From: Candidatus Saccharimonadales bacterium
Lineage (GTDB): Bacteria > Patescibacteriota > Saccharimonadia > Saccharimonadales > EFPC-124
Length of the DNA stretch: 64,000 nucleotides
Reading direction: 5' to 3'
NCBI GenBank assembly: GCA_035457485.1
Contig: DATIBO010000006.1
Location: 626,659 to 690,658 of the forward strand
Part shown: positions 4,795-64,000 of the stretch, piece after piece
How positions within the stretch are numbered: position 1 is the first letter of the stretch
Layout: every line of letters begins with the position of its first letter
The notes under the pieces: generated by a model
Databases searched by the model: none
Told to the model about the DNA's origin: nothing
What the model saw: only the letters and a program-made list of their open reading frames with translations
Program-made: the position numbers and the translations under genes

Positions 4795-5181
4795 CTACAG
4801 GTGACCATCCGCGCCCAACGCACGCCACGGATTGCCTCCGTAGGGCTTGCGAACCAGGGCAGCGTCTGGGGAGTCGGTGCTAGGCTTTTCGAGCTTGCTG
4901 GGGTTCGAGAAGCTGATGACCTGCTCAGCATTCGGCCGGTCCGACGTCTCATCAGGGGTCGGCGGCCGCGAGATCGTGTTGATCCGCTGGATCAGGCGAC
5001 CGATTGCAGCACGCTCGCGATTACTCGGCTCGTCCTGCAACAGGTAGCGCAGGCGCTCGAGCATGGTCGCCAGCTCGTTGATCACACCCAGCGACAGCAT
5101 CTTCTTAGGGTCGCGGTCGGCAGGTACGATCAGATCCAGGCGTGCGACAATCTCGTCGAGAGTAGCGTCGACGGTGTCCAA
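4795..5181 (-). CDS. GC-rich islet A ORF, hypothetical 128-aa protein
   Basis: TTG start with GAGGAG 5 nt upstream. Codon third positions are mostly G/C. The opposite-strand ORFs are Arg-rich shadows. No family recognised. Confidence 0.5.
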   Translation of the reverse strand: MDTVDATLDEIVARLDLIVPADRDPKKMLSLGVINELATMLERLRYLLQDEPSNRERAAIGRLIQRINTISRPPTPDETSDRPNAEQVISFSNPSKLEKPSTDSPDAALVRKPYGGNPWRALGADGHL

Positions 5182-5516: not shown

Positions 5517-5545
5517 TTGACTTACACACAATATTCCTGTATATT
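5517..5545 (+). promoter_or_regulatory. Sigma-70-type promoter of the rplJL operon
   Basis: TTGACT (5517-5522), 17-nt spacer ending in TG, then TATATT (5540-5545). Confidence 0.55.
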
Positions 5546-5551
5546 TAAGAG

Positions 5552-5727
5552 GAACATTGCCACAGACAGTAGCTGCCCACAAAGCTTAATCCGCTACCGA
5601 GGAATGACACAAAAATCATTTTTACGTTTTAAAGTCTTTGGTAATGCGAGAATCAAAGACTTTTTTGTTTCTCAAGCATTTTAACAATCTGGCCGATCAC
5701 AAATAAAATAACAGGAGTTTAACGACT
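5552..5727 (+). promoter_or_regulatory. Candidate L10 leader with terminator-like attenuator
   Basis: About 175 nt of leader before rplJ. Hairpin AAAGTCTTTG (5631-5640) / CAAAGACTTT (5654-5663) runs into TTTTTTGTTT. Confidence 0.4.
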
Positions 5728-6261
5728 ATGGCGATTTCACGTCAGACAAAAGAAACTCAGGTAGCTGAACTTGCTGAACTTTTAGCTAGCGCTAAACTTA
5801 CAGCTTTTGCAGCTTACCAGGGTCTTTCTGTAAAAGAACTCCAAACTCTGCGTCGCTCGGCTCGCGAAGCTGGCGTTACAATTAAAGTTGTTAAAAACCG
5901 ACTTGTGCGCATCGCTCTTAGCCAAACCGAGAACCTAAAAAACGTTGAAGCAGGCGCCCTAAAAGGTCAATTGCTTTACGCCGTAAGCAGCGAAGACGAA
6001 GTTGCACCCGCACAGGTGTTAGCTAAATTTGCTAAAGACCACGAAGCCCTACAACTGTTAGGCGGTATCGATGCCACTGGTGTCGTACTCGACCAAGCAG
6101 ACGTAAAGGCTTTGGCGGATCTTCCGAGCAAAGATCAACTTCGCGGAATGCTTGTTGGCACATTGGCCGCACCACTCAGTGGTTTCGTCAATGTTTTGGC
6201 CGGCAACGTTCGTGGCGTGCTAAACGTTTTGAACGCTCGCGCAGAAGCTTTGGAAAATTAA
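5728..6261 (+). CDS. rplJ: 50S ribosomal protein L10
   Basis: 177 aa. ..KVVKNRL.. and position upstream of rplL. Confidence 0.95.
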   Translation: MAISRQTKETQVAELAELLASAKLTAFAAYQGLSVKELQTLRRSAREAGVTIKVVKNRLVRIALSQTENLKNVEAGALKGQLLYAVSSEDEVAPAQVLAKFAKDHEALQLLGGIDATGVVLDQADVKALADLPSKDQLRGMLVGTLAAPLSGFVNVLAGNVRGVLNVLNARAEALEN

Positions 6262-6270
6262 TCAGTAATT

Positions 6271-6520
6271 CGCAAAAGCTTTTGAATATTTTTTCCTCGG
6301 AACTGCGGTTCTTGAATGTGTTCTATAACACATTCTGCGCTTCCGATGTTCCTTGAAAATAAATATTCAGCGCTTTTGATCTACGACCAACCGAAGATCT
6401 AAAGGATTTTCACAAATGATAAGTCGAGAGATTTTAATTACTATTTTTAAAGCACCTCGGAAGCGAAAAATATGTTAAAAAACATATTTTTTGACCCGCA
6501 AGTGCTGCGAAAATATAATT
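6271..6520. repeat. Two related palindromic hairpin elements in the rplJ-rplL spacer
   Basis: GAATGTGTTctatAACACATTC (about 6314-6335), nested in a roughly 110-nt imperfect hairpin. AAAATATGTTaaaaAACATATTTT (about 6467-6490). Both are preceded by CCTCGGAA. Confidence 0.5.
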
Positions 6521-6575
6521 AAAGATCGCGCAAACTGAGACTTAAAATTCTCAAAATAACTAAGGAGACCATAAC

Positions 6576-6983
6576 ATGGCAGATGAAAACAAAGTGGTAG
6601 AAGTACCAAAAGAATTCGAAAAACTAGTTGCTGAACTAGACAAAATGAGCGCACTAGAAATTAGCAAATTTGTTAAATTCCTAGAAGAATACTGGGGTGT
6701 TAGCGCAGCTGCTCCAGCAGTAGCTATGGCTATGCCAGTTGCTGGCGAAGCTGCTGCCGCTGCAGACGAAAAAACCGAGTTCACTGTAACTCTTAAAGAT
6801 GCAGGCGCACAAAAAGTTGCTGTAATCAAAGCTGTTAAAGAACTAACAGGTCAAGGTTTAGGCGAAGCTAAAGGTCTAGTTGACGGCGCTCCAAGCGTTA
6901 TCAAAGACAAAGTTAGCAAAGACGAAGCTGACGCAGCTAAAAAAGCTCTAGAAGAAGCTGGTGCTACTGTAGAAGTAGCCTAA
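6576..6983 (+). CDS. rplL: 50S ribosomal protein L7/L12
   Basis: Ala-rich hinge, ..[27 protein letters not shown]... SD is TAAGGAGA. Confidence 0.95.
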
Positions 6984-7231: not shown

Positions 7232-8383
7232 ATGTCACAAGAAAAATTTGTTGAATTACTATCGCAGTTAGTTGCAATTGAATCAGTTGCCAGCAACAAG
7301 CAGGCGTTGCACAACGCCGTAGATTTTATAGGGGACCTCATTAAAGATGTGCCTAATGTAACAATCGAAAAACACCAAAGTAACGGTGTGCCGAGCTTGC
7401 TTGCCTACAAAGGCAATAGGACTGCAAAGTTTGATATTTTGCTAAACGCTCATGTCGATGTTGTTCCTGCTGATCCAAGTTCATTTAAAGTAGCTGTAAA
7501 AGACGGTCGAATTTACGGCCGCGGCGTTCTCGACATGAAAGGGACTGCAATTGCACTCGCACAAGTCTTTAAGCAAGCAGTAAACAATGTACCGTACAAC
7601 TTAGGTCTACAAATAGTAAGCGATGAGGAAGTTGGCGGTCAGGATGGCGTGAATTACTATCTAAAAAACGGTCTTGAAGCAGATTTCGTTATCCTTGGTG
7701 AATACAACAACACAAAAAACACAATTTACAACGCAGCGCGCGGCATTTGTTGGATTGAAGTTGGTTTTAAGGGTGAATCTGCTCATGGCGCCCACCTCTG
7801 GCACGGCAGCAATGCAATAGTAAAAGCAAGTGAATTTGTTACAGGCATTCTTAAATGTTACCCAACGCCAAAGGCTGAAACCTGGACAACCACAGCTAAC
7901 ATTGCGACGATTAGCACCGAAAATGAAACCTATAATAAAGTACCCGACAAAGCAAAAGTTAAAATCGACTTTAGATTCACACAAGAGGATCCAAATTTTA
8001 AAGACAAACAAAGTGTAAAAGATTTTGTCAAAAGCATCCACCCAGAGGCCGAACTATTACAGTTTGTGAATTTTGAGCCATCAGTGCATGTAGAAGAGTT
8101 GAATCCGTACGTACAGGGGTTAAGTAGTGCACTTCAGAAGGTAACTGGCAGCCCTGTGAGCTACAAAAGTAGACCGGGCGGCAGCGATGGGCGGCATTTT
8201 GCAGCCAAAAACATCGATGTCGTAGAATTTGGCTTGTACGGTGAAGGTTCACACAGTCCAAATGAGTACATAGAAACAAGTTCGTTTACGGAATATGTTT
8301 CGGTTTTAAACAATTTTTTACAAAATCCTAAGTCACAAGTAAAGGTTGAACAGAATGAACGAAGCTCAGTCGCTTCTAGATAA
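7232..8383 (+). CDS. M20-family metallopeptidase (ArgE/DapE-like)
   Basis: ..NAHVDVVPA.., ..GRGVLDMKG.., ..SDEEVGG... Confidence 0.75.
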   Translation: MSQEKFVELLSQLVAIESVASNKQALHNAVDFIGDLIKDVPNVTIEKHQSNGVPSLLAYKGNRTAKFDILLNAHVDVVPADPSSFKVAVKDGRIYGRGVLDMKGTAIALAQVFKQAVNNVPYNLGLQIVSDEEVGGQDGVNYYLKNGLEADFVILGEYNNTKNTIYNAARGICWIEVGFKGESAHGAHLWHGSNAIVKASEFVTGILKCYPTPKAETWTTTANIATISTENETYNKVPDKAKVKIDFRFTQEDPNFKDKQSVKDFVKSIHPEAELLQFVNFEPSVHVEELNPYVQGLSSALQKVTGSPVSYKSRPGGSDGRHFAAKNIDVVEFGLYGEGSHSPNEYIETSSFTEYVSVLNNFLQNPKSQVKVEQNERSSVASR

Positions 8384-9443
8384 ATTAGTAGGCGCTAAAT
8401 CAGTCACTGGCGACCGCGATGGCACAAAGCTGGCCATGGATGTTGTTGAAGAGCGCCTTAAAAAAATTGGTATGCAGATTTATCGCACTAGCTTCGACGG
8501 CTATGAGGCGTTGGTTGCCACTACTCAAAAAACGAAAACTCCAAAAGTTATGCTAGCGGGCCATATTGATGTAGTTCCGGCTAGCGACGATATGTTTAAA
8601 ATGCAGATTGCTGGCGACAAGATTATTGGCCGCGGCGTTTGGGACATGAAATCCGCCATTGCCGGATATATTTTGGCAGCCGAAAGCCTAAAAGATAATT
8701 TGCTGGACTACGATTTTGGAATAATGTTAAGCAGCGACGAAGAGGGGCCTGATAGAGGAATCGAAGACTTAATCGGAGAAGGTTATTTCCCAACAGATCA
8801 GGCGATCTTATTCGATGGCGCCGAAAATTGGCAGCTTGAGAAAGCCGCTAAAGGGATCACAGCTTACACAGTAAAGATCAAAGACAAAACTGGTCACGGA
8901 TCACGACCATGGCTAGTTAATAGTGCCTCGATGCGGCTGATTGAGCTCTTAAAAGAAGTTAAGGACCTATTTGCTGACGCTGGCAAGTTAACTAACACTT
9001 TAAACTTAAGCGGCCTAGAATCGGGTAAAATTGGTGTGGCCTACAATCAAATTCCGGCCGAAGCTACCGCGATGTTCGAGTTTAGAGCCGTAAGCGCCAC
9101 TGAGCGCGACAGATTAAAATCTGCAATCGAAAAAATCTGCCAAAAATACGACGCCCAATACGAAATATTTTTTAGCACCGAAGCGCTCTTCCATGACGAA
9201 AGCGATCCGCACTATATTCAATTTGCAAAAAGTGTTAAAAAAGTTACCGGGATAGAAAACAAAGGGTTTGTAAGCTCAGGAGGAAGTAGCGCCCGGTACT
9301 TTATTGACAAAGGAACTGGCTGCATAGTCACTTGGCCGGTCGGCGGGGGTCATCATAGTGAATCAGAGTGGATTGATGTCCAATCTCTAGACCACATCGC
9401 ACCCGTAATCACTGACTATCTACAAAAAATGGCCAAAGTTTAA
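8355..9443 (+). CDS. M20-family metallopeptidase (ArgE/DapE-like), second copy
   Basis: ..GHIDVVPA.., ..GRGVWDMKS.., ..SDEEGP... ATG 8355 is preferred over TTG 8346. Overlaps the upstream gene. Confidence 0.75.
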   Translation: MNEAQSLLDKLVGAKSVTGDRDGTKLAMDVVEERLKKIGMQIYRTSFDGYEALVATTQKTKTPKVMLAGHIDVVPASDDMFKMQIAGDKIIGRGVWDMKSAIAGYILAAESLKDNLLDYDFGIMLSSDEEGPDRGIEDLIGEGYFPTDQAILFDGAENWQLEKAAKGITAYTVKIKDKTGHGSRPWLVNSASMRLIELLKEVKDLFADAGKLTNTLNLSGLESGKIGVAYNQIPAEATAMFEFRAVSATERDRLKSAIEKICQKYDAQYEIFFSTEALFHDESDPHYIQFAKSVKKVTGIENKGFVSSGGSSARYFIDKGTGCIVTWPVGGGHHSESEWIDVQSLDHIAPVITDYLQKMAKV

Positions 9444-9537: not shown

Positions 9538-10047
9538 ATGACTGAGTTACCTGAAAAACAGATCAAAAGACTAAGATCTTTGATCCAGGACGCCGAAACA
9601 AATTTAGCAGCCGCTAAAGAACTTTTAGTAAGCTTAGTGGGTGAAGATCCAATTGCCCACACTGCGAACACGACCGAAGCAGCTGGTAAAATTATCGAAG
9701 GGGTCTTTGATGGCCAAACCATGCTTGATGCCGACGGTAAATCTTACCCAGTACCAGCAAACTACGCCAGCAAATCTAAGTTGGTTGAAGGCGATATATT
9801 AAAGCTCACAATCACCGAAGATGGTGGCTTTTTGTACAAACAGATCGGTCCAGTTGCGCGCAAACAAATCATCGGCACTCTACTCCAGCGCGATGGCGCT
9901 TTTGTAGTTGAAGCCGCGGGCCGCGACTACAAGGTTTTGCTAGCAAGCGTTACTTACTTTAAAGCCAAACAAGGCGACCAAGTTAGCATTATTGTACCAG
10001 AGGACAACCGCGAAGCTGAGTGGGCGGCGATTGAAGCAGCTCTGTAG
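9538..10047 (+). CDS. Hypothetical protein (170 aa)
   Basis: ATG 9538 is preferred. An upstream extended -10 (cTGTATAAT) lies inside the longer ORF-track version. No family recognised. Confidence 0.55.
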   Translation: MTELPEKQIKRLRSLIQDAETNLAAAKELLVSLVGEDPIAHTANTTEAAGKIIEGVFDGQTMLDADGKSYPVPANYASKSKLVEGDILKLTITEDGGFLYKQIGPVARKQIIGTLLQRDGAFVVEAAGRDYKVLLASVTYFKAKQGDQVSIIVPEDNREAEWAAIEAAL

Positions 10048-10188
10048 TACAGAGTCACCGATCATGACGGGTTTTGCTTGGTTAACACGATCTGTTTGCG
10101 TTGGAGCAACAAAACCGAGCAGACTTCAATAATAGCTGGCGTCGCATGCGCGGTTAGCTTATACTAAAAGCAATAAGATCGAGGGGAA

Positions 10189-11685
10189 ATGGGACAAGCG
10201 CTTTATCGTAAATACCGTTCGCGCTCACTAGCCGAAGTTATTGGCCAAGAGCACATTACCGAAACGCTAGGCAACGCCATAAAATCTGGCCGTATTAGTC
10301 ATGCTTATTTATTTACAGGCCCTCGTGGAACCGGCAAAACGAGCGTGGCGCGTATTTTGGCTCATGAAATTAACAAGTTGCCATACTCTGACAAAACTCA
10401 ACTAGATATTATTGAGATAGACGCCGCAAGTAACCGCCGAATTGACGACATACGTGAGCTACGCGAAAAAGTTCATATTGCACCTGTAAACGCTCCTTAC
10501 AAAGTTTACATAATTGACGAAGTCCACATGCTAACAGGGGAGAGTTTTAACGCCTTGCTAAAAACTCTTGAGGAACCCCCCGAACATGTGGTATTTATTT
10601 TAGCGACCACCGAATCCCACAAACTGCCTGCGACCATAATTAGCCGTACACAGCGCTTCGCGTTTAGGTTGGTAGACCGAGCAAAGGTTATTGGACACTT
10701 AAAAAACATAGCTCAAAAAGAAGGCATCAAGATCACAGACGATGCTCTTCAGATTATCGCCGAGCATGGCGGCGGATCTTTCCGTGATAGCATAAGTCTT
10801 CTTGATCAAATTTCAAACATTACAGATGACGACATTACGGCACAAAGTATCGAGCAGGCTCTGGGTCTGGCTGCGAACAGTGCGGTTCAATCTGTTTTAA
10901 ATTGCTTGCTAACAGGTGATCACTTGACTTTGGGACAGATCTTAGACGATATTGACGCGCAAGGAGTTGCTCCAGCGGCTTTCGTCAATCAGTTGTCGAA
11001 ACAGATCACCAACCAAGCAACAAGCCACCCGCAGCTTTATGATTTACTCGATAAACTACTCGACGTGCCACGAGCGTACAACCCGCGATTGAAAATGCTA
11101 GCGATTTTGCTAAGTTTCGCAGCTCAGGGCAAGCAAGGTAAGCCCGCAAAAACAATGGCAACGCAGGTTACGCCAGCTGTTTTGCAAACGATCGAAAAAA
11201 TTGAAAAGCCTAAAGCTAACGAGACACCGCAACCAGCACAAGCGGAACCAGATCAAAAACGACCAACTGCGCCACAGATAAAACTAACTTCAGACAAGAA
11301 TAACAACCAACGAGACGCTACCGCCAAAACCATAAAGCTAGATGACATTACCGCTGAGCAATGGCAGCAAATTACCGATGCCGTTAAAAAAGTTAACATA
11401 CCCCTGCACTCGGTTTTGAAACACGCGGTACCGCTTTTTGACGCGCAGAATCAAAAATTAACTCTAGCTTTTAAGTGGCAATTACATCGCAAAAAACTTG
11501 ATGACGTTAAACAAAAGATGGTAATTAGCCAAATTGTTACCGAGATTTTTAACGGCGACATAGAGGTAACGACATCACTCAACAAAGAAGCGTCTATGCC
11601 TATTACGAGTGATGACCCGACAGTTATGAGCGTGGCTGATATTATGGGTGGCGGTGAAATTGTAAATTTGGACGGGAACTCATAG
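10189..11685 (+). CDS. dnaX: DNA polymerase III gamma/tau subunit
   Basis: ..YLFTGPRGTGKTS.. Walker A, ..IIDEVHML.., ..SRTQRF... Confidence 0.9.
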   Translation: MGQALYRKYRSRSLAEVIGQEHITETLGNAIKSGRISHAYLFTGPRGTGKTSVARILAHEINKLPYSDKTQLDIIEIDAASNRRIDDIRELREKVHIAPVNAPYKVYIIDEVHMLTGESFNALLKTLEEPPEHVVFILATTESHKLPATIISRTQRFAFRLVDRAKVIGHLKNIAQKEGIKITDDALQIIAEHGGGSFRDSISLLDQISNITDDDITAQSIEQALGLAANSAVQSVLNCLLTGDHLTLGQILDDIDAQGVAPAAFVNQLSKQITNQATSHPQLYDLLDKLLDVPRAYNPRLKMLAILLSFAAQGKQGKPAKTMATQVTPAVLQTIEKIEKPKANETPQPAQAEPDQKRPTAPQIKLTSDKNNNQRDATAKTIKLDDITAEQWQQITDAVKKVNIPLHSVLKHAVPLFDAQNQKLTLAFKWQLHRKKLDDVKQKMVISQIVTEIFNGDIEVTTSLNKEASMPITSDDPTVMSVADIMGGGEIVNLDGNS

Positions 11686-13062
11686 ATGGCCGATTTTAAA
11701 AAACAGGATTTTAAGAACAAAAAACAACCGACACAGGGAAAGATTCAGCCTCAAAACCTCGATGCAGAGATTAGCTTGCTCGGCGCGGTTTTAATTGACG
11801 AAGAAGTTTTGACGCGCGTTAGTGATAAAATTCATGCTGACGATTTTTATGATCCACGCCATGAGCTGATTTTTGGGGCGATGATTGGTCTTTACGAACG
11901 CCACAAACCAGTGGATCTATTAACGCTTTCTAATGAACTCAAAAAGAAAGACGAACTTGAGAGTGCTGGTGGGACCGAGTATTTAACAGAACTCAGCAAC
12001 CAAGTACCAACAGCCGCACACGCCGAAAGTTATGCCGAAATTATCTCGCAGAATGCCATGCGCCGTAGATTGATCACTGCTTCGGGTGCAATCGCCGAAC
12101 TTGGTTTTGACGAAAGTAAAAACACTGGCGAGCTTTTAGAGCAAGCCGAGGCCGAGCTTTTTGCGGTTTCCGACAAGACTCTGCGTCAGGAATTAGCAAG
12201 TTTAGAGCAAATCTTAACTGAAAGCTTTGATCGAATCGAAGAGCTTCATAGTAACAAAGACGGACTGCGCGGCGTGCGAACTGGGTTTCGCGACCTTGAC
12301 AACCTGACCGCCGGCTTGCAGCGCAGCGATCTTGTAATTTTAGCCGCTCGACCAGCCATGGGTAAAACAACCCTCGTCACAAACTTAGCGTATAACGTTG
12401 CCACGATCGAAAAAAAGTCAGTTTTGTTCTTTAACCTCGAGATGAGTAAGGAACAGTTGGTTGACCGTATGTTGGCCGACGCAGCCGGGGTAGACGCCTG
12501 GAACATTCGCACTGGTAAGTTAACCGATGAAGATTTTGAAAAAATCAGTCACGCCATGGGAGAGATGGCCGAAGCGCCAATTTACATTGACGATACGCCA
12601 GGCTTGAGCGTTCTTGAGCTCCGTACCAAAGCTCGCCGAGCAGCGCATGAACATCCGCTTGGCTTGATTATTATCGACTACTTACAACTTATGTCGGGTA
12701 GCGGCCGCAGCGGCGATAACCGCGTGCAAGAGGTGAGCGAAATCTCGCGAGGCTTAAAATTGGTTGCCCGCGAACTTAACGTGCCGGTGATCGCACTAAG
12801 TCAGCTTTCGCGTTCTGTCGAAACCCGCACACCACCAGTGCCCCAGCTTAGCGACTTACGTGAATCTGGATCCATCGAGCAAGACGCTGACATCGTAGCC
12901 TTTATTTACCGCGAAGCCTATTACAACCCAGAGACTGAACGCCAAAACGTTACAGACCTGATTTTGGCTAAGCATCGTAATGGTCCCACTGGCAAAGTTG
13001 AGCTTTACTTCCACCCAGAACGTTTGCGATTTATGACGCTAGACAAACAACACCATCAATAA
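11686..13062 (+). CDS. dnaB: Replicative DNA helicase
   Basis: ..ILAARPAMGKTT.. Walker A, ..IIIDYLQLM.., ..SQLSRSVE... Confidence 0.95.
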   Translation: MADFKKQDFKNKKQPTQGKIQPQNLDAEISLLGAVLIDEEVLTRVSDKIHADDFYDPRHELIFGAMIGLYERHKPVDLLTLSNELKKKDELESAGGTEYLTELSNQVPTAAHAESYAEIISQNAMRRRLITASGAIAELGFDESKNTGELLEQAEAELFAVSDKTLRQELASLEQILTESFDRIEELHSNKDGLRGVRTGFRDLDNLTAGLQRSDLVILAARPAMGKTTLVTNLAYNVATIEKKSVLFFNLEMSKEQLVDRMLADAAGVDAWNIRTGKLTDEDFEKISHAMGEMAEAPIYIDDTPGLSVLELRTKARRAAHEHPLGLIIIDYLQLMSGSGRSGDNRVQEVSEISRGLKLVARELNVPVIALSQLSRSVETRTPPVPQLSDLRESGSIEQDADIVAFIYREAYYNPETERQNVTDLILAKHRNGPTGKVELYFHPERLRFMTLDKQHHQ

Positions 13063-13129: not shown

Positions 13130-13567
13130 CTAAGAGTTTGAGAAATCGCCCAGCCGAGTACGCTGACCGCAGCACTCTCCGAGCGCCTCGGCGATCACGT
13201 CCTCGACGCGCGAGACCAGCAGCGATACCTGAGCGAAGCTGTACCGGTGGACTTTGCGAGCCTGGAAGTACATCGTCTCGGGCATCTCAACGCCCGCCTT
13301 GATCTCGATCCGAGAACCCTGGGCGATGACAGAGATGTGAAGCGTGCCACTGCCGAACGGGGCAGCTCCATGCATCTTCTGTAGCGTCAGCAGGATTCCA
13401 GCGTCGAACAGGTCGACCGGATAGTCTGCAGCGTCCGCCTGATTGATACTGGAGTACTCGTAGTTCGCGAAGAACTGCTGGAGCGCATTGATGATGCTCC
13501 GCCGCTGATCAGCGCTCAGCGATTGACCCCCTCGGACAAGCACGCTGCATTTTGGCCACACGTTCAC
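13130..13567 (-). CDS. GC-rich islet B ORF, hypothetical 145-aa protein
   Basis: GTG start with AAAAGGAGG 5 nt upstream. TGTTATAGT extended -10 (rc of 13599-13607). G/C-rich third codon positions. No family recognised. Confidence 0.55.
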   Translation of the reverse strand: MNVWPKCSVLVRGGQSLSADQRRSIINALQQFFANYEYSSINQADAADYPVDLFDAGILLTLQKMHGAAPFGSGTLHISVIAQGSRIEIKAGVEMPETMYFQARKVHRYSFAQVSLLVSRVEDVIAEALGECCGQRTRLGDFSNS

Positions 13568-16122: not shown

Positions 16123-16680
16123 TTACCAGCGATCGCGCCAGCGCTCGACCACGGTCGGGAAGACCTCTTCGAACCCACGACCGTCTTGAAGCCAGGCGAT
16201 TGCCTGTCCGATCAGCAGATCGGCGTGTTCTTGACGGTTGTTGGGTATGCCTTCGGGCACACGGATCTCATTGTAGAGACCCGTTTCCAGAAGACGCCGA
16301 GCGATGGCGCGGCTGTCCACAGTCGTGCCAACATGCCAGGCCTGACCGAATCTGACCAGCCAGTTCAGCAGAAGCTCGCGATCGATCAGGTGGAGTTTGT
16401 GGAACTCATCGAGAAGATCCGAGATCGCCAGAGCCTTAGGTATCGACTGGCGAACCCGCTGCTCCAGATCTCTGGTTTCTCGACCCTGGCGGTACTGAGC
16501 CATGGCCTCCTCGTGAGTCGAGTTCGGGTGGACGACGACATCGACACCATTGAAGTCCGAAACCACCGCGGTCCTGCGATTGCGAGCCTCGAGGAGTAAC
16601 TCCTCTATGTGCTCTTCAATCGGAATCCAGGGGGAAGTTTCGACCCTCGTGGGCCCTTGCTCTTTTCGTCTGAACCACAT
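16123..16680 (-). CDS. GC-rich islet C ORF, hypothetical 185-aa protein
   Basis: ATG with AAAGGAGAGG upstream. TGATAAAGT extended -10 (rc of 16708-16716). The antisense 137-aa ORF is a shadow. No family recognised. Confidence 0.55.
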   Translation of the reverse strand: MWFRRKEQGPTRVETSPWIPIEEHIEELLLEARNRRTAVVSDFNGVDVVVHPNSTHEEAMAQYRQGRETRDLEQRVRQSIPKALAISDLLDEFHKLHLIDRELLLNWLVRFGQAWHVGTTVDSRAIARRLLETGLYNEIRVPEGIPNNRQEHADLLIGQAIAWLQDGRGFEEVFPTVVERWRDRW

Positions 16681-46176: not shown

Positions 46177-46268
46177 CAACATTTACATTAAGTAAAATTA
46201 TGCTATAGTTAGTCGGTCATGGAGGAGCGCATGTTTTACGTGCGCCTGACAATCGAAATGGAGTGCAG

Positions 46269-47135
46269 ATGCCTCTCATCGAGGACATCGGGAACTGGAT
46301 CCAGGGAGCAGCGGCCACGTGCCTCGACTTCCTGGGCAAGATCCCGCGCGCTGTGTTCGGCGACGCCGTGGATTCGGAGTACGGCCGATGGGCTGCGACG
46401 CTCGTGTTCATCGCGATCGTCTCTTACGCCATCACCGGCATCCGATCGGTGTCGACGCTGTTCGTCGCCAAGTTCGACCTGGGGTTCAGCCAGGCGAAGA
46501 TCGACGACTACAACGACAAGCGCGGCGAGAACGACGAGAAGTACGTGTTCGACTGGGGCAAGGCGCGACGACAGCAGTCGCGCAGCCTGTCGTTCCTGTG
46601 GCCGGTCGGTCTGATCGCGCTGGGCAGCATGTACTACTGGGTGCGCTACGACCTCACCAGCAAGGGCTACTTCCTGCTGGCGATGGCGTGGTTCGCCTTC
46701 TACCTGCTGGTCATCAAGCCGTGGTGGATCAACACCAAGCTCCGCAGCGACCGCAACCTGGTCGACTCGGGCGTGATCACCCGCGACAAGGCGCCGTACT
46801 ACCACTTCAGCACCCGGCAGGGCATCCAGCACTACATGGGCTGGGGCCTTTACGGGCGCAAGAAGCAGCGCAGCCCGATCTTCATCGGCGGGCTCCGCTA
46901 CGTGCGATGGATCCTGGCGCCGTTCGCCTGGGTCCGCAAGCGCATGATCACGCCGTTCCTGTGGATCTGCGTCCTGGCAGCGGCCTGGATGATCACCGCT
47001 CCGCTCATCGTGTTCTGGCTGGGAACCCGTTTCGACCGGCGCCGCTACTGGCTCCGGCCGCCGTGGGCCCCGGACTACGCGATCGAACCGACGATCCACG
47101 AGTTCGTCGCCACAAGCGACAGCTCGAGCAGCTGA
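46269..47135 (+). CDS. GC-rich islet D ORF, hypothetical 4-TM membrane protein
   Basis: ATG 46269 with GGAG 5 nt upstream (the ORF track uses GTG 46263). Nearly all codons end in G/C. TM segments ..WAATLVFIAIVSYAITGI.., ..LSFLWPVGLIALGSMYYWV.., ..GYFLLAMAWFAFYLLVI.., ..FLWICVLAAAWMITAPLIVFWL... Three other long ORFs here are shadows. Confidence 0.6.
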   Translation: MPLIEDIGNWIQGAAATCLDFLGKIPRAVFGDAVDSEYGRWAATLVFIAIVSYAITGIRSVSTLFVAKFDLGFSQAKIDDYNDKRGENDEKYVFDWGKARRQQSRSLSFLWPVGLIALGSMYYWVRYDLTSKGYFLLAMAWFAFYLLVIKPWWINTKLRSDRNLVDSGVITRDKAPYYHFSTRQGIQHYMGWGLYGRKKQRSPIFIGGLRYVRWILAPFAWVRKRMITPFLWICVLAAAWMITAPLIVFWLGTRFDRRRYWLRPPWAPDYAIEPTIHEFVATSDSSSS

Positions 47136-47256: not shown

Positions 47257-49767
47257 TTAATTTGAATAGCTCCGCCTAAGGTACGTTTGGTAGATTGGCG
47301 CAAATTGACACTCAGGAGTAGATTTTGCGCAAACCGAAGAATCAAAGGCAGAATATGATCTAAATATTGTAGATTTATCCGTTAACGTCTGGTCAATAAC
47401 GTTTTCGGGTTTTGATGCAACAGGGTAGCCGACATAGAACTGGGCGGCGGTCTCACCGTATTCTGATTTATACTTTTCAAAAGCTGTAGTGGCTATTTTT
47501 CCCGACTCAAGATGGTCGCTGTGATCAGGTGGCGTGGCATTTTTATCGGTTGATTGCAACCGAACAATCGAAGGAGAGTAGAATTGCATTAACCGACCAA
47601 GTGCATTCGTTAAATCATCCAGCGAGTAAACAGATTGTTTATCCACAGATTTAACAGTTGAGATGACCCCGCGATCAAGCTTAGCTAGACTTTGTTGCTC
47701 AGAAGACTTGAAACCCTGTCCATTGACATTACCATCTGGCAAGCGCATAAAAATCAAAGAAACATTCGGGTTATCTTTGCTTGTCGCGGCTCTAATAAAT
47801 TGTTGATCTCCCAGTTTTATAATATGCGTCGACCAAGATCTAGGACTCACGCCGAGCATAGTTGAATAAGCAGCTATTGCACCTTCTTCGCGCCGCAGCC
47901 AATAAAACTGGTCAGCGCCAGCATCCCCGGCGGTTAAATAAATAGTTCTTACGCAATGCCCAGATTTTATATCGTCGAACGTGGCCGGATTCATAAAAAG
48001 TAAATCATCATCTTGATGGGCTACCACTTGCAAAGTCGTTGATGCCGAGCAAAAAGCATCGTTAAAGTCACTCAATAAAATTGGCTTGATTGTAGCCGCG
48101 TCCTGTCCAACATGCGGGCCATTGGTAATTCCATTGTTATACAGCAACAGCAGCTCTTTAGGCTTATCGACCGTTCCATTAATTACCACACTTTTGCTCG
48201 GGCGACCATAAACTTCGGTAATCGTGTCGAGTCCACACGAAGGAGCGTCCGCGAGCGGGCTTTCTAACGACAGAATATACGCAAAAGAACTCTCTTTTAG
48301 ATCTTTTTGCCAATTTTTGCTCGATAGTAAATCACGCGGCTGAGTACAGTCCATAAGCGGTAAGATCGCCTGATTTTCATTGCTTAAAAGCCTGATCGGA
48401 ACAACACGCCAGTAATTGCCGACCAAAACGTCAACTTTATAAGATTTTAGTGCGCTGACAATTCTTTTATTATAAGTTGCTACTGGGTTTAACGCTTGTT
48501 GTTCACTGCGATAGGTTTTTACAGACGTAGGTAGAGCAATTATAATTCCGGCTAAGATTATAATTCCGGTTATAACTACAATTTTAGGGTTAAGCGTGCG
48601 CCGGCTCAAAACACTAGCAAGCGCCACAAAACCAGCAAAAAGAGCAATTCCTAAATATCTAAAGTCCACCGGGAAGTAGTGGTCACTTACAATATATGAT
48701 CCGATCGCTGCAACAAGCGTCCAGACTAAAATCACAGGCAATGCGTACGTTTTTGGGTCAATTTTAACTTTAAAACTACGCCAAAATACAACCGCCATTG
48801 CCCATATAGCCGCTATGAAAATTAAAAAGTTAACAATGTAACTTGCGATGTAGATCGACCCTGCGCTGCGCCAAACTTGCCCCATTATGTCAGCTAAAAT
48901 TCGTGGATCACTAGCAGGCAACACGCCAAAGTTAACAGATAAAGCCACAAAGACATAAATTACACCGCGCGCTAATTCCTTAAAGTCAGTTATAAACCCA
49001 TACGGGCTTATGCCGGTATGTGATATATCTGTAAACAACTGGAGAACCCATAAAATTATAGTGGCAACAACTATGGCCGCGACAGTTGCAAGCAGCCAGC
49101 GAATAGCGATTCGCATCATCGGCCTAGCGTGCATTACCCAGTAGCAAACCGTAGCCAAAAGCGCACCACCCAGACTTATACTTACAAAAAGACGATCACT
49201 TGCAAATAAAATTGATAGCAACACAACACCAAACCAAAAACTCGATTTTTTATAAGTTCCGCGCAAAATCAAAACAATTGACAAAATATATAGTACATAC
49301 TCAAGATTTCGGGTAGTGATCATAGCCATATTAACTGGCAAAAGTGCGCCATCGTAAGGTTGAGCAGGAACTAAAATTAGGGTAGATGCCAAGGCCAGAC
49401 AAAGCGTGCCAAAAACGAGCATGCGATTTTCGATCCTATATATAAGGTACGCCAACGCAATTACAGTTAAAAGCACACTCATTAGAGTAACCAGCAGGAA
49501 CGCAAGGTTTGTAAAACCTAAAATTTTAGCAAATAAAAACAATGGCCACTTAAATAAAAACGAATGTTGGTAAGGCACAAACGCCTCTTTAAAAGTATCT
49601 GGACTTTCAAACAGGTATGAATTAACTAGTTGATCAGCATTTTGACTATTAAGTTGCGCACCTAAACTTGCCCACAAAATTGTCGTACAAATAAGCACAG
49701 CTAAGCCACCGCCAGCATAAAGTGCTGGTAAAACAAAGTTCTTTAAAAAATTATACTTCTTGTTCAT
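47257..49767 (-). CDS. Fusion protein: polytopic GT-C-like membrane domain plus C-terminal PIG-L/LmbE-family deacetylase
   Basis: About 13 TM in the N-terminal 440 aa. C-terminal ..VVAHQDDDLLFMNP.., ..IYLTAGDAG.., ..PPDHSDH.. (PIG-L zinc motifs). Confidence 0.7.
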   Translation of the reverse strand: MNKKYNFLKNFVLPALYAGGGLAVLICTTILWASLGAQLNSQNADQLVNSYLFESPDTFKEAFVPYQHSFLFKWPLFLFAKILGFTNLAFLLVTLMSVLLTVIALAYLIYRIENRMLVFGTLCLALASTLILVPAQPYDGALLPVNMAMITTRNLEYVLYILSIVLILRGTYKKSSFWFGVVLLSILFASDRLFVSISLGGALLATVCYWVMHARPMMRIAIRWLLATVAAIVVATIILWVLQLFTDISHTGISPYGFITDFKELARGVIYVFVALSVNFGVLPASDPRILADIMGQVWRSAGSIYIASYIVNFLIFIAAIWAMAVVFWRSFKVKIDPKTYALPVILVWTLVAAIGSYIVSDHYFPVDFRYLGIALFAGFVALASVLSRRTLNPKIVVITGIIILAGIIIALPTSVKTYRSEQQALNPVATYNKRIVSALKSYKVDVLVGNYWRVVPIRLLSNENQAILPLMDCTQPRDLLSSKNWQKDLKESSFAYILSLESPLADAPSCGLDTITEVYGRPSKSVVINGTVDKPKELLLLYNNGITNGPHVGQDAATIKPILLSDFNDAFCSASTTLQVVAHQDDDLLFMNPATFDDIKSGHCVRTIYLTAGDAGADQFYWLRREEGAIAAYSTMLGVSPRSWSTHIIKLGDQQFIRAATSKDNPNVSLIFMRLPDGNVNGQGFKSSEQQSLAKLDRGVISTVKSVDKQSVYSLDDLTNALGRLMQFYSPSIVRLQSTDKNATPPDHSDHLESGKIATTAFEKYKSEYGETAAQFYVGYPVASKPENVIDQTLTDKSTIFRSYSAFDSSVCAKSTPECQFAPIYQTYLRRSYSN

Positions 49768-62821: not shown

Positions 62822-63253
62822 ATGAAACGATTGGATAGAAAATCTGACTGCGCAATCAACTACACACTCGAAGCCATCGGGGACCCTTGGTCGCTTCTAA
62901 TAGTGCGTGACATCGTTTATTTCGGCAAAAAAACATACGGCGAATTTTTAGCCTCAGAAGAAGCAATCGCAGAAGCACCTCTGGCTCGTCGTTTGGCGGC
63001 ATTGCAAGCCCACGGGATTCTGACAAAAAAACGCTCACAAACCGACAAGCGCAAAGAGGAGTACAGTTTAACTCAAAAAGGAATCGACCTAATTCCTTTA
63101 ATTATCGATTTTGCCATTTGGGGAGCAAAACACGACACGCATACTGGCGCTGATCAAGAATGGATTAACAAAAGTTCAACAAAACGCGAAGAAGCTTTGC
63201 AGGATTTACAGCTTGCCGTAAAAGACGGCCGCGCCTTTTTTAAAAATCAGTAA
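62822..63253 (+). CDS. HxlR-family transcriptional regulator
   Basis: ..CAINYTLEAIGDPWSLLIVRDI.. ..YSLTQKGIDLIPLI... Confidence 0.75.
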   Translation: MKRLDRKSDCAINYTLEAIGDPWSLLIVRDIVYFGKKTYGEFLASEEAIAEAPLARRLAALQAHGILTKKRSQTDKRKEEYSLTQKGIDLIPLIIDFAIWGAKHDTHTGADQEWINKSSTKREEALQDLQLAVKDGRAFFKNQ

Positions 63254-63276
63254 AAATTTTATGCTAAATTATTAAT

Positions 63277-63468
63277 ATGGTGAAACACCAGAAGGGAAAG
63301 GTGAGGGTTCAAAACGCTGGTCTACTCGATATGACCGGTGTGAGCCTCACCGAACTCGCTGCACTGGAGGAGCTCCCTCCGCAGCTGCGAGGCGCGGCGC
63401 AAAAGGCGATAGCCGATGTGGCTAACGCTAGCGAGGCGCTCTCGGCGTTCCAATCCTTCACGAGCTAA
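63277..63468 (+). CDS. GC-rich islet E small ORF (63 aa as listed; 55 aa from GTG 63301, 45 aa from ATG 63331)
   Basis: Ala/Leu/Glu-rich peptide with G/C-ending codons. The first 8 codons are AT-rich native leader. A 56-aa Arg-rich minus-strand ORF overlaps it and is judged a shadow. Confidence 0.35.
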   Translation: MVKHQKGKVRVQNAGLLDMTGVSLTELAALEELPPQLRGAAQKAIADVANASEALSAFQSFTS

Positions 63469-63497
63469 TCGCTCGCGACAACTGGTATCCATCTATA

Positions 63498-63528
63498 GGT
63501 GGGCTGCGCGGGAAACCTGCAGTCCACC
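63498..63528 (+). terminator. GC-rich hairpin after the islet-E ORF
   Basis: GGTGGGCTGC gcgggaaacct GCAGTCCACC (10 bp including one G-U). Confidence 0.45.
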
Positions 63529-63568
63529 GCCAACCATAGCAGCGATAAGAAAACTAGTAAGGGAATAA

Positions 63569-64000
63569 ATGCAAAAAATCATACCATGCCTATGGTTCAA
63601 TATGAACGCTGAAGAGGCTGTGAACTACTACCTAAGTGTATTTAAAAATTCCAAAATCATTCGCATGGACAAATATCCTGATGAATCCTTAGACGAGCAT
63701 TTTAAAGGTATGGCCGGCAAAGTGATCAACGGTGAGTTTGAATTAGACGGTATGCGTTTCACATGTTTAGATGGAGGTCCAGCCTTTAAAATTAGCGAGG
63801 CTGTGTCGTTTATCGTTACCTGCAAAGACCAAGCTGAAGTTGATTATTACTGGGAAAAACTATCTGCAGTACCCGAATCGGAACAATGCGGCTGGTGCAA
63901 AGACAAATTTGGCGTAAGCTGGCAAATTATACCAACTCGTTTAGGCGAGCTACTCAGTCATCCTGACAAGACCAAGGCAAACAAAGCCATGCAAGCAATG
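63569..64000 (+). CDS. VOC-superfamily protein (PhnB / 3-demethylubiquinone-9 3-methyltransferase-domain type), 3' end outside window
   Basis: Not in the ORF track because it has no stop inside the window. ATG 63569 with SD AAGGGA. MQKIIPCLWFN..AEEAVNYY.. ..CGWCKDKFGVSWQI.. Open to nt 64000 (144 codons). Confidence 0.65.
   Translation, partial: MQKIIPCLWFNMNAEEAVNYYLSVFKNSKIIRMDKYPDESLDEHFKGMAGKVINGEFELDGMRFTCLDGGPAFKISEAVSFIVTCKDQAEVDYYWEKLSAVPESEQCGWCKDKFGVSWQIIPTRLGELLSHPDKTKANKAMQAM

Follow-up and report, generated by a model that had tools for sequence, protein, structure and literature searches.

A GC-rich islet in a Saccharimonadia genome carries an orphan gene for an FxsA-like precursor peptide

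Introduction

Kaur, Burroughs, Iyer and Aravind (2020, PMC7159879) describe a "peptide-processing system" among the conflict systems of Actinobacteria, and treat FxSxx-type peptides as components of such systems with a predicted role as signal or toxin. FxsB is one of a group of cyclophane-forming enzymes whose substrates are precursor peptides (PMC10114670), and aromatic-X-X motifs are cross-linked by triceptide synthases (PMC11499958). Here we describe a gene of the FxsA (FxSxx-COOH) precursor family that stands outside this setting. It lies in a 64,000-nt stretch of a Candidatus Saccharimonadales genome (contig DATIBO010000006.1; the whole stretch is referred to as the window), within a GC-rich block, islet E, in the spacer between an hxlR-family regulator gene and a VOC/PhnB-like gene.

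A first-pass annotation of the window had proposed that the block is imported DNA which split the leader of the VOC gene and duplicated its Shine-Dalgarno (SD) sequence, AAGGGAA. Our own reading, to which we assign a probability of about 0.7, is that islet E is a horizontally acquired, higher-GC mini-cassette of ~245 bp, set between hxlR and the VOC gene in a member of the Saccharimonadia (TM7) from soil or rhizosphere. The cassette would consist of an FxsA-type gene and a U-less stem-loop from an actinophage or actinobacterium; the gene would be an orphan and largely neutral passenger, and the repeats would be two ribosome-binding sites.

Results

Islet E encodes a peptide of the FxSxx-COOH family

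The open reading frame (ORF) of islet E can begin at any of three codons, giving products of 63 aa (ATG 63277), 55 aa (GTG 63301) or 45 aa (ATG 63331), all of which end in ALSAFQSFTS and share the TAA stop at 63466-63468. The gene call in the Logan assembly uses the GTG start, and its 55-aa product, here named P0001, has a weak precomputed hit to PF27839 (FxSxx-COOH). The first-pass annotation had described an Ala/Leu/Glu-rich peptide of 45-63 aa; the ORF, its in-frame GTG and a hairpin downstream of it were all found in place, and what had gone unrecognised is the membership of the peptide in the FxSxx-COOH/FxsA family. P0001 has the C-terminal F-x-S of that family: it ends in SAFQSFTS, its FQS falls on positions 40-42 of the 44 positions of TIGR04268, and it carries one C-terminal residue more than the name-giving FxSxx motif.

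A word-indexed search of 5.8 billion proteins matched P0001 to itself alone. When 1.84 billion representatives were searched exhaustively with phmmer, P0004 was recovered, a 57-aa peptide with 45% identity to P0001 from end to end; two repetitive phmmer matches, P0002 and P0003, were discarded as low-complexity false positives. The last ten residues, ALSAFQSFTS, are the same in P0001, P0004 and P0005. At the nucleotide level, the core shows 6 synonymous differences from the P0004 gene (on L049) and 7 from the corresponding gene on contig L052, with no amino-acid change in either. The antisense ORFs of the block had no match in Pfam, PHROGs, PADLOC or NCBIfam. Conservation at the protein level across unrelated genomic contexts rules against an incidental ORF and against a leader RNA, and the 55-aa ORF is a real gene.

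The peptide belongs to a SAFQSF family tied to FxsA

Profile searches brought together 30 or more peptides of 46-94 aa ending in [IL]SAFQSF[TA]S, and SAFQSF proved invariant in 28 of the 28 aligned members. Those from Catellatospora and Hamadaea carry the source name 'FXSXX-COOH protein'. On TIGR04268 (curated cutoff 28 bits) the scores are 13.8 bits for P0001, 15.9 for P0004, 18.7 for P0019 of Hamadaea, 27.4 for P0005 and 29.9 for P0015. The Hamadaea peptide, an FxsA encoded beside FxsB itself, is thus also under the cutoff. In Hamadaea flava two genes directly follow that of P0019. One encodes the FxsB radical S-adenosylmethionine (SAM)/SPASM maturase (TIGR04269, 454 bits, cutoff 370) and the other an aKG-HExxH peptide beta-hydroxylase (TIGR04267), and on their flanks are genes for VMAP-M0/NB-ARC/TPR, AAA_16-TPR and caspase-WD40 proteins. 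P0001 is tied to FxsA transitively, since P0005 and P0015 score near or above the cutoff and the P0019 gene directly precedes that of FxsB.

Judged by their sequences, the SAFQSF peptides are a subgroup of the predicted FxSxx-COOH (FxsA) precursors of cyclophane RiPPs (peptides made on the ribosome and then modified post-translationally). By analogy with the triceptide precursors, the FQS and FTS of the core would be two motifs of the triceptide-synthase type. Three members of 86-94 aa (P0006, P0008 and P0013) hold two cores per peptide (..VAGFGSFTG.. and ..ISAFQSFTS), with a leader-like segment before each.

The closest relatives are orphan genes on phage contigs

The closest relatives of P0001 are encoded by orphan SAFQSF genes that sit among small accessory genes on high-GC contigs. 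P0001 is 37-44% identical to the phage-contig peptides vs. 26-34% to the chromosomal type of Micromonosporaceae. P0027 is encoded on L052 (10001-10147; contig 63% GC) among genes for terminase, Mu_F, ThyX, dCTP deaminase, PrimPol/D5_N, DUF397 and a phage zinc-binding protein, and the terminase is nearest to those of Gordonia, Microbacterium, Arthrobacter and Mycobacterium phages (33-35% identity). P0012 (L056, 2860-3006) is accompanied by a terminase large subunit (phrog_36964, 2e-33) and other PHROG families, and P0035 (8001-8183 of the 54.7-kb contig L140) by terminase, Mu_F and a TROVE protein. The gene of P0015, found on L053 (10001-10162), L054 and L055, has DUF397 genes and a phage zinc-binding domain next to it; the large neighbours of P0015 had no PHROG match. 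An ORF of at least 150 aa with a CxxxCxxC motif was found on none of these contigs (L052, L056, L140, L053, L054 and L055). The peptides encoded on them retain leader features of chromosomal FxsA (PLVDL..., KRVI.ALDDPDG).

Full-text literature searches returned no description of phage-borne FxSxx-COOH peptides. The recurrence on phage contigs of an orphan FxsA peptide of an actinobacterial radical-SAM/conflict system is a by-product of this analysis that is perhaps more useful than the locus itself, and it offers a testable hypothesis of phage interference with Fxs/conflict systems.

No maturase is encoded near the peptide gene

Neither the 64-kb window nor the 5 kb past its end contains a CxxxCxxC ORF of at least 150 aa; the same scan detected the maturase of the Hamadaea control locus (L138). 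Radical_SAM is missing from the precomputed Pfam lists of L001 and L051, and near the locus these lists hold transporters, regulators and hydrolases only. P0001 is an orphan precursor within 69 kb, and it cannot be cyclised in cis, because no maturase is encoded nearby.

Islet E is foreign in composition and is missing in the closest VOC relatives

Averaged over 100 nt, GC content is 64-67% at ~63300-63450 and 55-56% from there up to ~63550, as opposed to 33-47% in the flanks; averaged over 40 nt, it exceeds 50% from ~63300 to 63520. The block was placed at roughly 63299-63543 (55-75% GC; flanks roughly 33-47%), with a fuzzy left edge (63290-63330) and a right edge at or before 63543. The genome of the host has ~44.5% GC. 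By codon position, the GC of the peptide ORF is 0.70/0.46/0.66, compared with about 0.5/0.37/0.43 in the adjacent genes, and its third-position GC (GC3) of 0.66 compares with 0.42-0.44 in native genes.

The hxlR gene and its surroundings mark the host as a Saccharimonadia (TM7) bacterium. The best relatives of the hxlR product (55-74% identical) occur in Candidatus Saccharibacteria, Saccharimonadia and Patescibacteria metagenome-assembled genomes (MAGs), and also in Chloroflexota. A divergent abhydrolase-hxlR pair is kept in four Saccharimonadia/Patescibacteria loci, and the order glyoxalase-abhydrolase-hxlR in L032. The VOC gene starts at ATG 63569 and its full-length product has 160 aa, as read from L001 (6748-7230). 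Its closest relatives (86-87% aa identity) are on JGI metagenome contigs, where the gene is preceded by a leader that is 42 nt long or otherwise short, AT-rich and devoid of a GC-rich block. The features of the locus are collected in Table 1.

Table 1. Annotated features of the hxlR-VOC region (window coordinates)
Feature	Position	Strand	Basis or remark
hxlR-family regulator gene, left neighbour of the insert	62822..63253	+	native, 44% GC; Pfam PF01638, E = 2e-13
TGCTAAATT, possible TG-extended -10 element for the peptide gene	63262..63270	+	inferred from sequence only
Left AAGGGAA, Shine-Dalgarno of the peptide gene	63292..63298	+	GGG ends 4 nt before GTG 63301
GC-rich foreign block, islet E	63299..63543	.	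composition; no second copy in the window
FxsA-like (FxSxx-COOH family) precursor peptide gene, 55 aa	63301..63468	+	GTG start; family searches
Core motif ALSAFQSFTS with two aromatic-X-X motifs (FQS, FTS)	63436..63465	+	identical in P0004 and P0005
Structured 3' element with hairpin 63498-63528, no U-tract	63468..63546	+	RNA fold
GATAAGAAAACTAGT, probably native VOC leader between insert and right repeat	63544..63558	+	local alignment with the L059 leader
Right AAGGGAA, native Shine-Dalgarno of the VOC gene	63559..63565	+	counterparts in L059 and L058
VOC/PhnB-like gene (3-demethylubiquinone-9 3-methyltransferase family)	63569..64000	+	cut at the window end; Pfam PF06983, E = 1.5e-45

The two AAGGGAA copies are best read as ribosome-binding sites

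Several elements named by the first-pass annotation are present in the sequence as it described them, namely both copies of AAGGGAA, TGCTAAATT at 21 nt before the left copy, and an SD for each of the two genes, at a spacing of 4-5 nt. A consensus scan detected no promoter on the + strand upstream of the peptide gene. TGCTAAATT resembles TGCTATAGT (46200-46208), both being TG-extended -10-like elements located in AT-rich sequence just 5' of the ORFs of islets E and D, respectively; elements of this type may be recipient-type promoters for imported genes.

Comparison with relatives of the VOC gene bears on the right copy. In L059 (87% aa identity, 42-nt leader) the VOC leader ends in ...GAGATAATGGAATCACTAGTATAAGGGGACTCT-ATG, and in the window in ...GCGATAAGAAAACTAGTAAGGGAATAA-ATG; at the position of the right copy, L059 has TAAGGGGA and L058 has AAAGGGGG. 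The local alignment with the L059 leader, GATAA--GAA-AACTAG--TAAGGG, was matched by 17 of 5000 shuffles (p = 0.003) and by 2-3 of 73 other upstream regions (~0.04). The left flank showed no significant similarity to the L059 leader (p = 0.13 vs. shuffles, with 8 of the 73 other upstream regions scoring as high). Should the homology to L059 hold, the VOC gene would have its ancestral SD in the right copy, with ~15 nt of its native leader standing between the block and that copy. As far as the alignment tells, GATAAGAAAACTAGT is probably this native stretch. The empty site reconstructed by the first-pass annotation does not fit with it, as that reconstruction would delete GATAAGAAAACTAGT. Rather than an insertion scar, the two copies most simply represent one ribosome-binding site for each of the two neighbouring genes.

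The 3' part of the block is structured

The hairpin at 63498-63528 is predicted to form inside a larger fold, 63468-63546 (-36 kcal/mol, z = -3.7), which would be closed by the outer stem ATCGCTCGC / GCAGCGAT. The terminator scan left the hairpin unreported because it has no U-tract and the scan requires a T-run. U-less hairpin terminators are common in Actinobacteria.

The window holds four other GC-rich islets

Four more single-gene islets of high GC occur in the window, A to D, at 4795-5181 (-), 13130-13567 (-), 16123-16680 (-) and 46263-47135 (+). They have 58-64% GC and GC3 of 0.67-0.93 vs. 0.42-0.44 in native genes, and their ORFs resemble real proteins. The proteins of islets A-D had no match in Pfam, PHROG, PADLOC or NCBIfam; searches of the islet C and D proteins against phages, and of islet D against IMG/VR, returned nothing. 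Islets A-E have no DNA or termini in common. For islet D, the Logan gene caller took the wrong strand (46236-47099 -), the + frame having a GC3 of 0.93. Islet A sits just upstream of an L10 leader (RF00557, 67.7 bits; 5542-5676) that precedes rplJ-like and rplL-like ORFs (5728-6983). The linkage of rplJL to rpoBC is apparently broken here, because the ORFs that come next (7232-8383 and 8346-9443) are too short for rpoB.

A comparable pattern was seen in L032 (Saccharimonadales MAG SMAG_U8748), which is partly syntenic with the window. It contains blocks of 64-67% GC at 7700-8900, 9800-11300 and 11900-12330 between spacers of 41-47% GC, with a methyltransferase-like ORF at 8172-9059. Islets of high GC may be a trait that soil Saccharimonadales have in general.

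Discussion

A likely route for the peptide gene into the hxlR-VOC spacer

The donor of islet E would most likely have been an actinobacteriophage or an actinobacterium, in which the peptide would feed an FxsB radical-SAM/SPASM cyclophane synthase or occur as an orphan phage gene. Taken up as foreign DNA, the cassette would have been integrated in the hxlR-VOC spacer through illegitimate recombination. The peptide gene could plausibly be transcribed and translated in its new place, given the TG-extended -10-like element and an AAGGG SD at 4-nt spacing, and the VOC gene would retain its own ancestral SD. The peptide would stay unmodified without FxsB, and its gene is most probably a passenger that arrived recently and is nearly neutral. 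Natural competence and an epibiotic life on Actinobacteria are both described for Saccharibacteria (PMC10633639, PMC10187176). With at least five unrelated single-gene islets in 64 kb and a second MAG of similar make-up, soil Saccharimonadia may often pick up small pieces of high-GC DNA, which would fit both natural competence and life on Actinobacteria.

Several observations weigh against parts of this reading. The TIGR04268 match of P0001 has an E value of 0.053, and its 13.8 bits do not reach the curated cutoff of 28. The donor sought at the DNA level was not found in PLSDB plasmids or INPHARED phages, and the best DNA match of the block among the fetched loci is 79% over 53 nt, in the conserved core-coding part (L050). 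Searches of INPHARED by tblastn with P0001 and P0027 gave nothing meaningful, and two alignments together with a back-translated core-plus-stop pattern gave no confirmed family member in IMG/VR, so the phage link rests on four metagenomic contig groups. The empty site that the first-pass annotation had predicted in related genomes (hxlR, short spacer, VOC) was found neither among 47 hxlR loci retrieved from GTDB genomes nor among 80 VOC loci of JGI metagenomes; because these 127 loci hold no empty site, the case for insertion is drawn from composition and phyletic pattern. Finally, an intact ORF, a perfectly kept core and a well-placed SD in the compact genomes of TM7 speak somewhat against a purely neutral passenger.

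Alternative explanations of islet E

That the block is inserted foreign DNA, as first proposed, agrees with its composition, with the occurrence of the peptide family in Actinobacteria and on high-GC phage contigs, and with its absence in the VOC relatives; a target-site duplication (TSD), the other part of that proposal, is not supported. According to it, the block entered at the VOC SD and duplicated its target, either as a 7-bp TSD or as ~18 nt of leader, so that the ORF now uses the left copy and the VOC gene still uses the right one. An islet-free allele should then have an hxlR-VOC spacer of the form ...CACCAGAAGGGAATAAATG, and the donor would not be expected to carry AGAAGGGAAAGGTG upstream of the peptide gene already. 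We consider this improbable. AAGGGAA is indeed scarce: the 64 kb hold 3 copies, counting both strands, vs. 8.7 expected, and two of the 3 flank the block, each preceding a start codon by 4-5 nt; the resemblance of the flanks also extends imperfectly over 17-18 nt (63281-63298 and 63549-63565; GAAACACCAG-AAGGGAA / GAAA-ACTAGTAAGGGAA) at p ~0.05, which is too weak to be called a duplication. Against this, some shared 7-mer is expected by chance in 4.5% of pairs of 30-nt zones 267 nt apart and in 2.6% of pairs of upstream-of-start zones, and since five islets were inspected the repeat alone is not significant; the first-pass annotation had itself allowed for chance. A simple TSD is moreover disallowed if ~15 nt of native leader precede the right copy, as the copies then do not both abut the insert, and an ORF without ribosome-binding site would have had to be joined at a point precisely 2 nt short of its start codon. 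Nor is there a transposase at hand or an empty site among the retrieved hxlR and VOC loci. The suggestion of an unrecognised non-autonomous element fares no better, with the block present as a single copy in the window, no inverted repeat joining its ends and no sequence or termini shared with islets A-D. A MITE (miniature inverted-repeat transposable element) family was rejected on the lack of shared islet termini and of terminal inverted repeats, an integron attC on the lack of R''/R'-like motifs by eye, and a tRNA-linked integration on the lack of tRNA genes within the window. Still further from the evidence is the reading of the block as a cis-regulatory leader RNA native to the VOC gene (riboswitch or attenuator), with an incidental ORF, a condition under which the first-pass annotation would have withdrawn its proposal and one to which we give almost no credence. 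The 314-nt region is more stable than its shuffles (z = -5.7) and its 3' part is stably structured too, but a high z-score is to be expected of a GC-rich block within AT-rich flanks, no Rfam family matches at the gathering threshold (just an irrelevant 11-bit match appears at E = 10), and the block is missing 5' of the closest VOC relatives. Its conservation, moreover, is that of a protein, with synonymous changes and unrelated genomic contexts, and its GC is periodic by codon position.

An assembly artefact, in which a chimeric join would have put a 245-bp high-GC fragment into a TM7 contig, is in our view very unlikely. The data are metagenomic, and in Logan the hxlR product and an 836-aa protein (47257-49767) are each recorded on two contigs (50-200 kb and 0.2-1 Mb) and P0001 on one; in the second contig the islet could be missing, or the genes could merely have been called differently. 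However, the window agrees with Logan contig SRR25158331_177, past whose end it runs by ~27 kb, without differences over the compared 7179 nt and 22,511 nt, islet included. The single short intergenic spacer that holds the block has TM7 sequence on both sides of it, the start and stop of the ORF and the hairpin downstream of it are intact, and a like mosaic of GC-rich islets occurs in an unrelated Saccharimonadales MAG. A different question is whether the acquired gene does something, and here a functional orphan peptide, which is compatible with horizontal origin, deserves some attention, although we hold it to be unlikely. The peptide would mimic the FxsA of actinobacterial Fxs/VMAP-NB-ARC systems, as a decoy substrate of FxsB or as an agonist or antagonist of a sensor, and the epibiont would thereby manipulate its host. 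The perfectly conserved core, the leader features kept in P0001 (LLD..G.SL.EL, L..AA.KAI..V), the SD and promoter-like element within a compact genome, and the independent recurrence of orphan copies on at least three terminase-carrying phage contig groups are in favour of it, as is the place that PMC7159879 gives to FxSxx-type peptides as conflict-system components, predicted signal or toxin. It is at odds with the occurrence of the peptide in one TM7 genome only, a singleton among the 5.8 and 1.84 billion proteins searched, with the lack of an export signal and of a known route into the host cytoplasm, and with the four other, unrelated single-gene islets of the window, which suggest indiscriminate uptake. 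That the orphan FxsA peptides of phages and TM7 alike mimic the conflict-system peptide, hijacking or jamming the FxsB maturase or the peptide sensor of the host, we regard as a long shot; if it were true, islet E would be a gene for host manipulation or counter-defence passed from phage to epibiont. We retain the reading of islet E as a horizontally acquired, largely neutral passenger cassette, by which the story of an insertion scar is replaced with a concrete identity, that of a foreign FxsA-type peptide gene and hairpin in TM7.

Comparison with known systems

Elements of the MITE type, which make TSDs, share with islet E the arrangement of a short insert between direct repeats. Islet E differs from them in its lack of terminal inverted repeats, in its single copy, in its coding capacity and in that the repeat probably does not abut the insert. 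A closer likeness is to the morons of phages and other accessory units of a single gene and terminator, which are also made up of a small gene, an RBS-like sequence and a terminal hairpin, have a distinct composition and are found between resident genes; the nearest homologues of P0001 are, too, small accessory genes on phage contigs. In contrast to these, islet E occupies a non-prophage chromosomal region, has no identified promoter of its own and has no phage genes nearby.

The peptide itself compares with two described systems. The peptide-processing modules of actinobacterial VMAP-ternary/NB-ARC (AP-ATPase) conflict systems, as presented in PMC7159879, have peptides of the FxSxx motif type, and the Hamadaea locus has their architecture exactly (peptide, radical-SAM/SPASM protein, HExxH protein, VMAP-M0/NB-ARC-TPR). 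The TM7 window has the peptide gene alone, the enzymes, the vWA/VMAP components and the effectors being absent. With the FxsA/FxSxx-COOH precursors (TIGR04268, PF27839) of the Fxs triceptide RiPPs, P0001 shares a size within 45-65 aa, a variable leader with L(V/L)D... and ...L..A..R(V/A)I... features, and the C-terminal aromatic-X-Ser core (FQS, FTS). It differs from them in having three residues, not two, after the Ser that aligns to the profile, in the lack of an FxsB maturase or HExxH hydroxylase nearby, and in its host, which belongs to the Saccharimonadia and not to the actinobacteria. The gene of islet E extends a known peptide family by a new member outside its usual context, and it is a case of a gene acquired by a TM7 bacterium.

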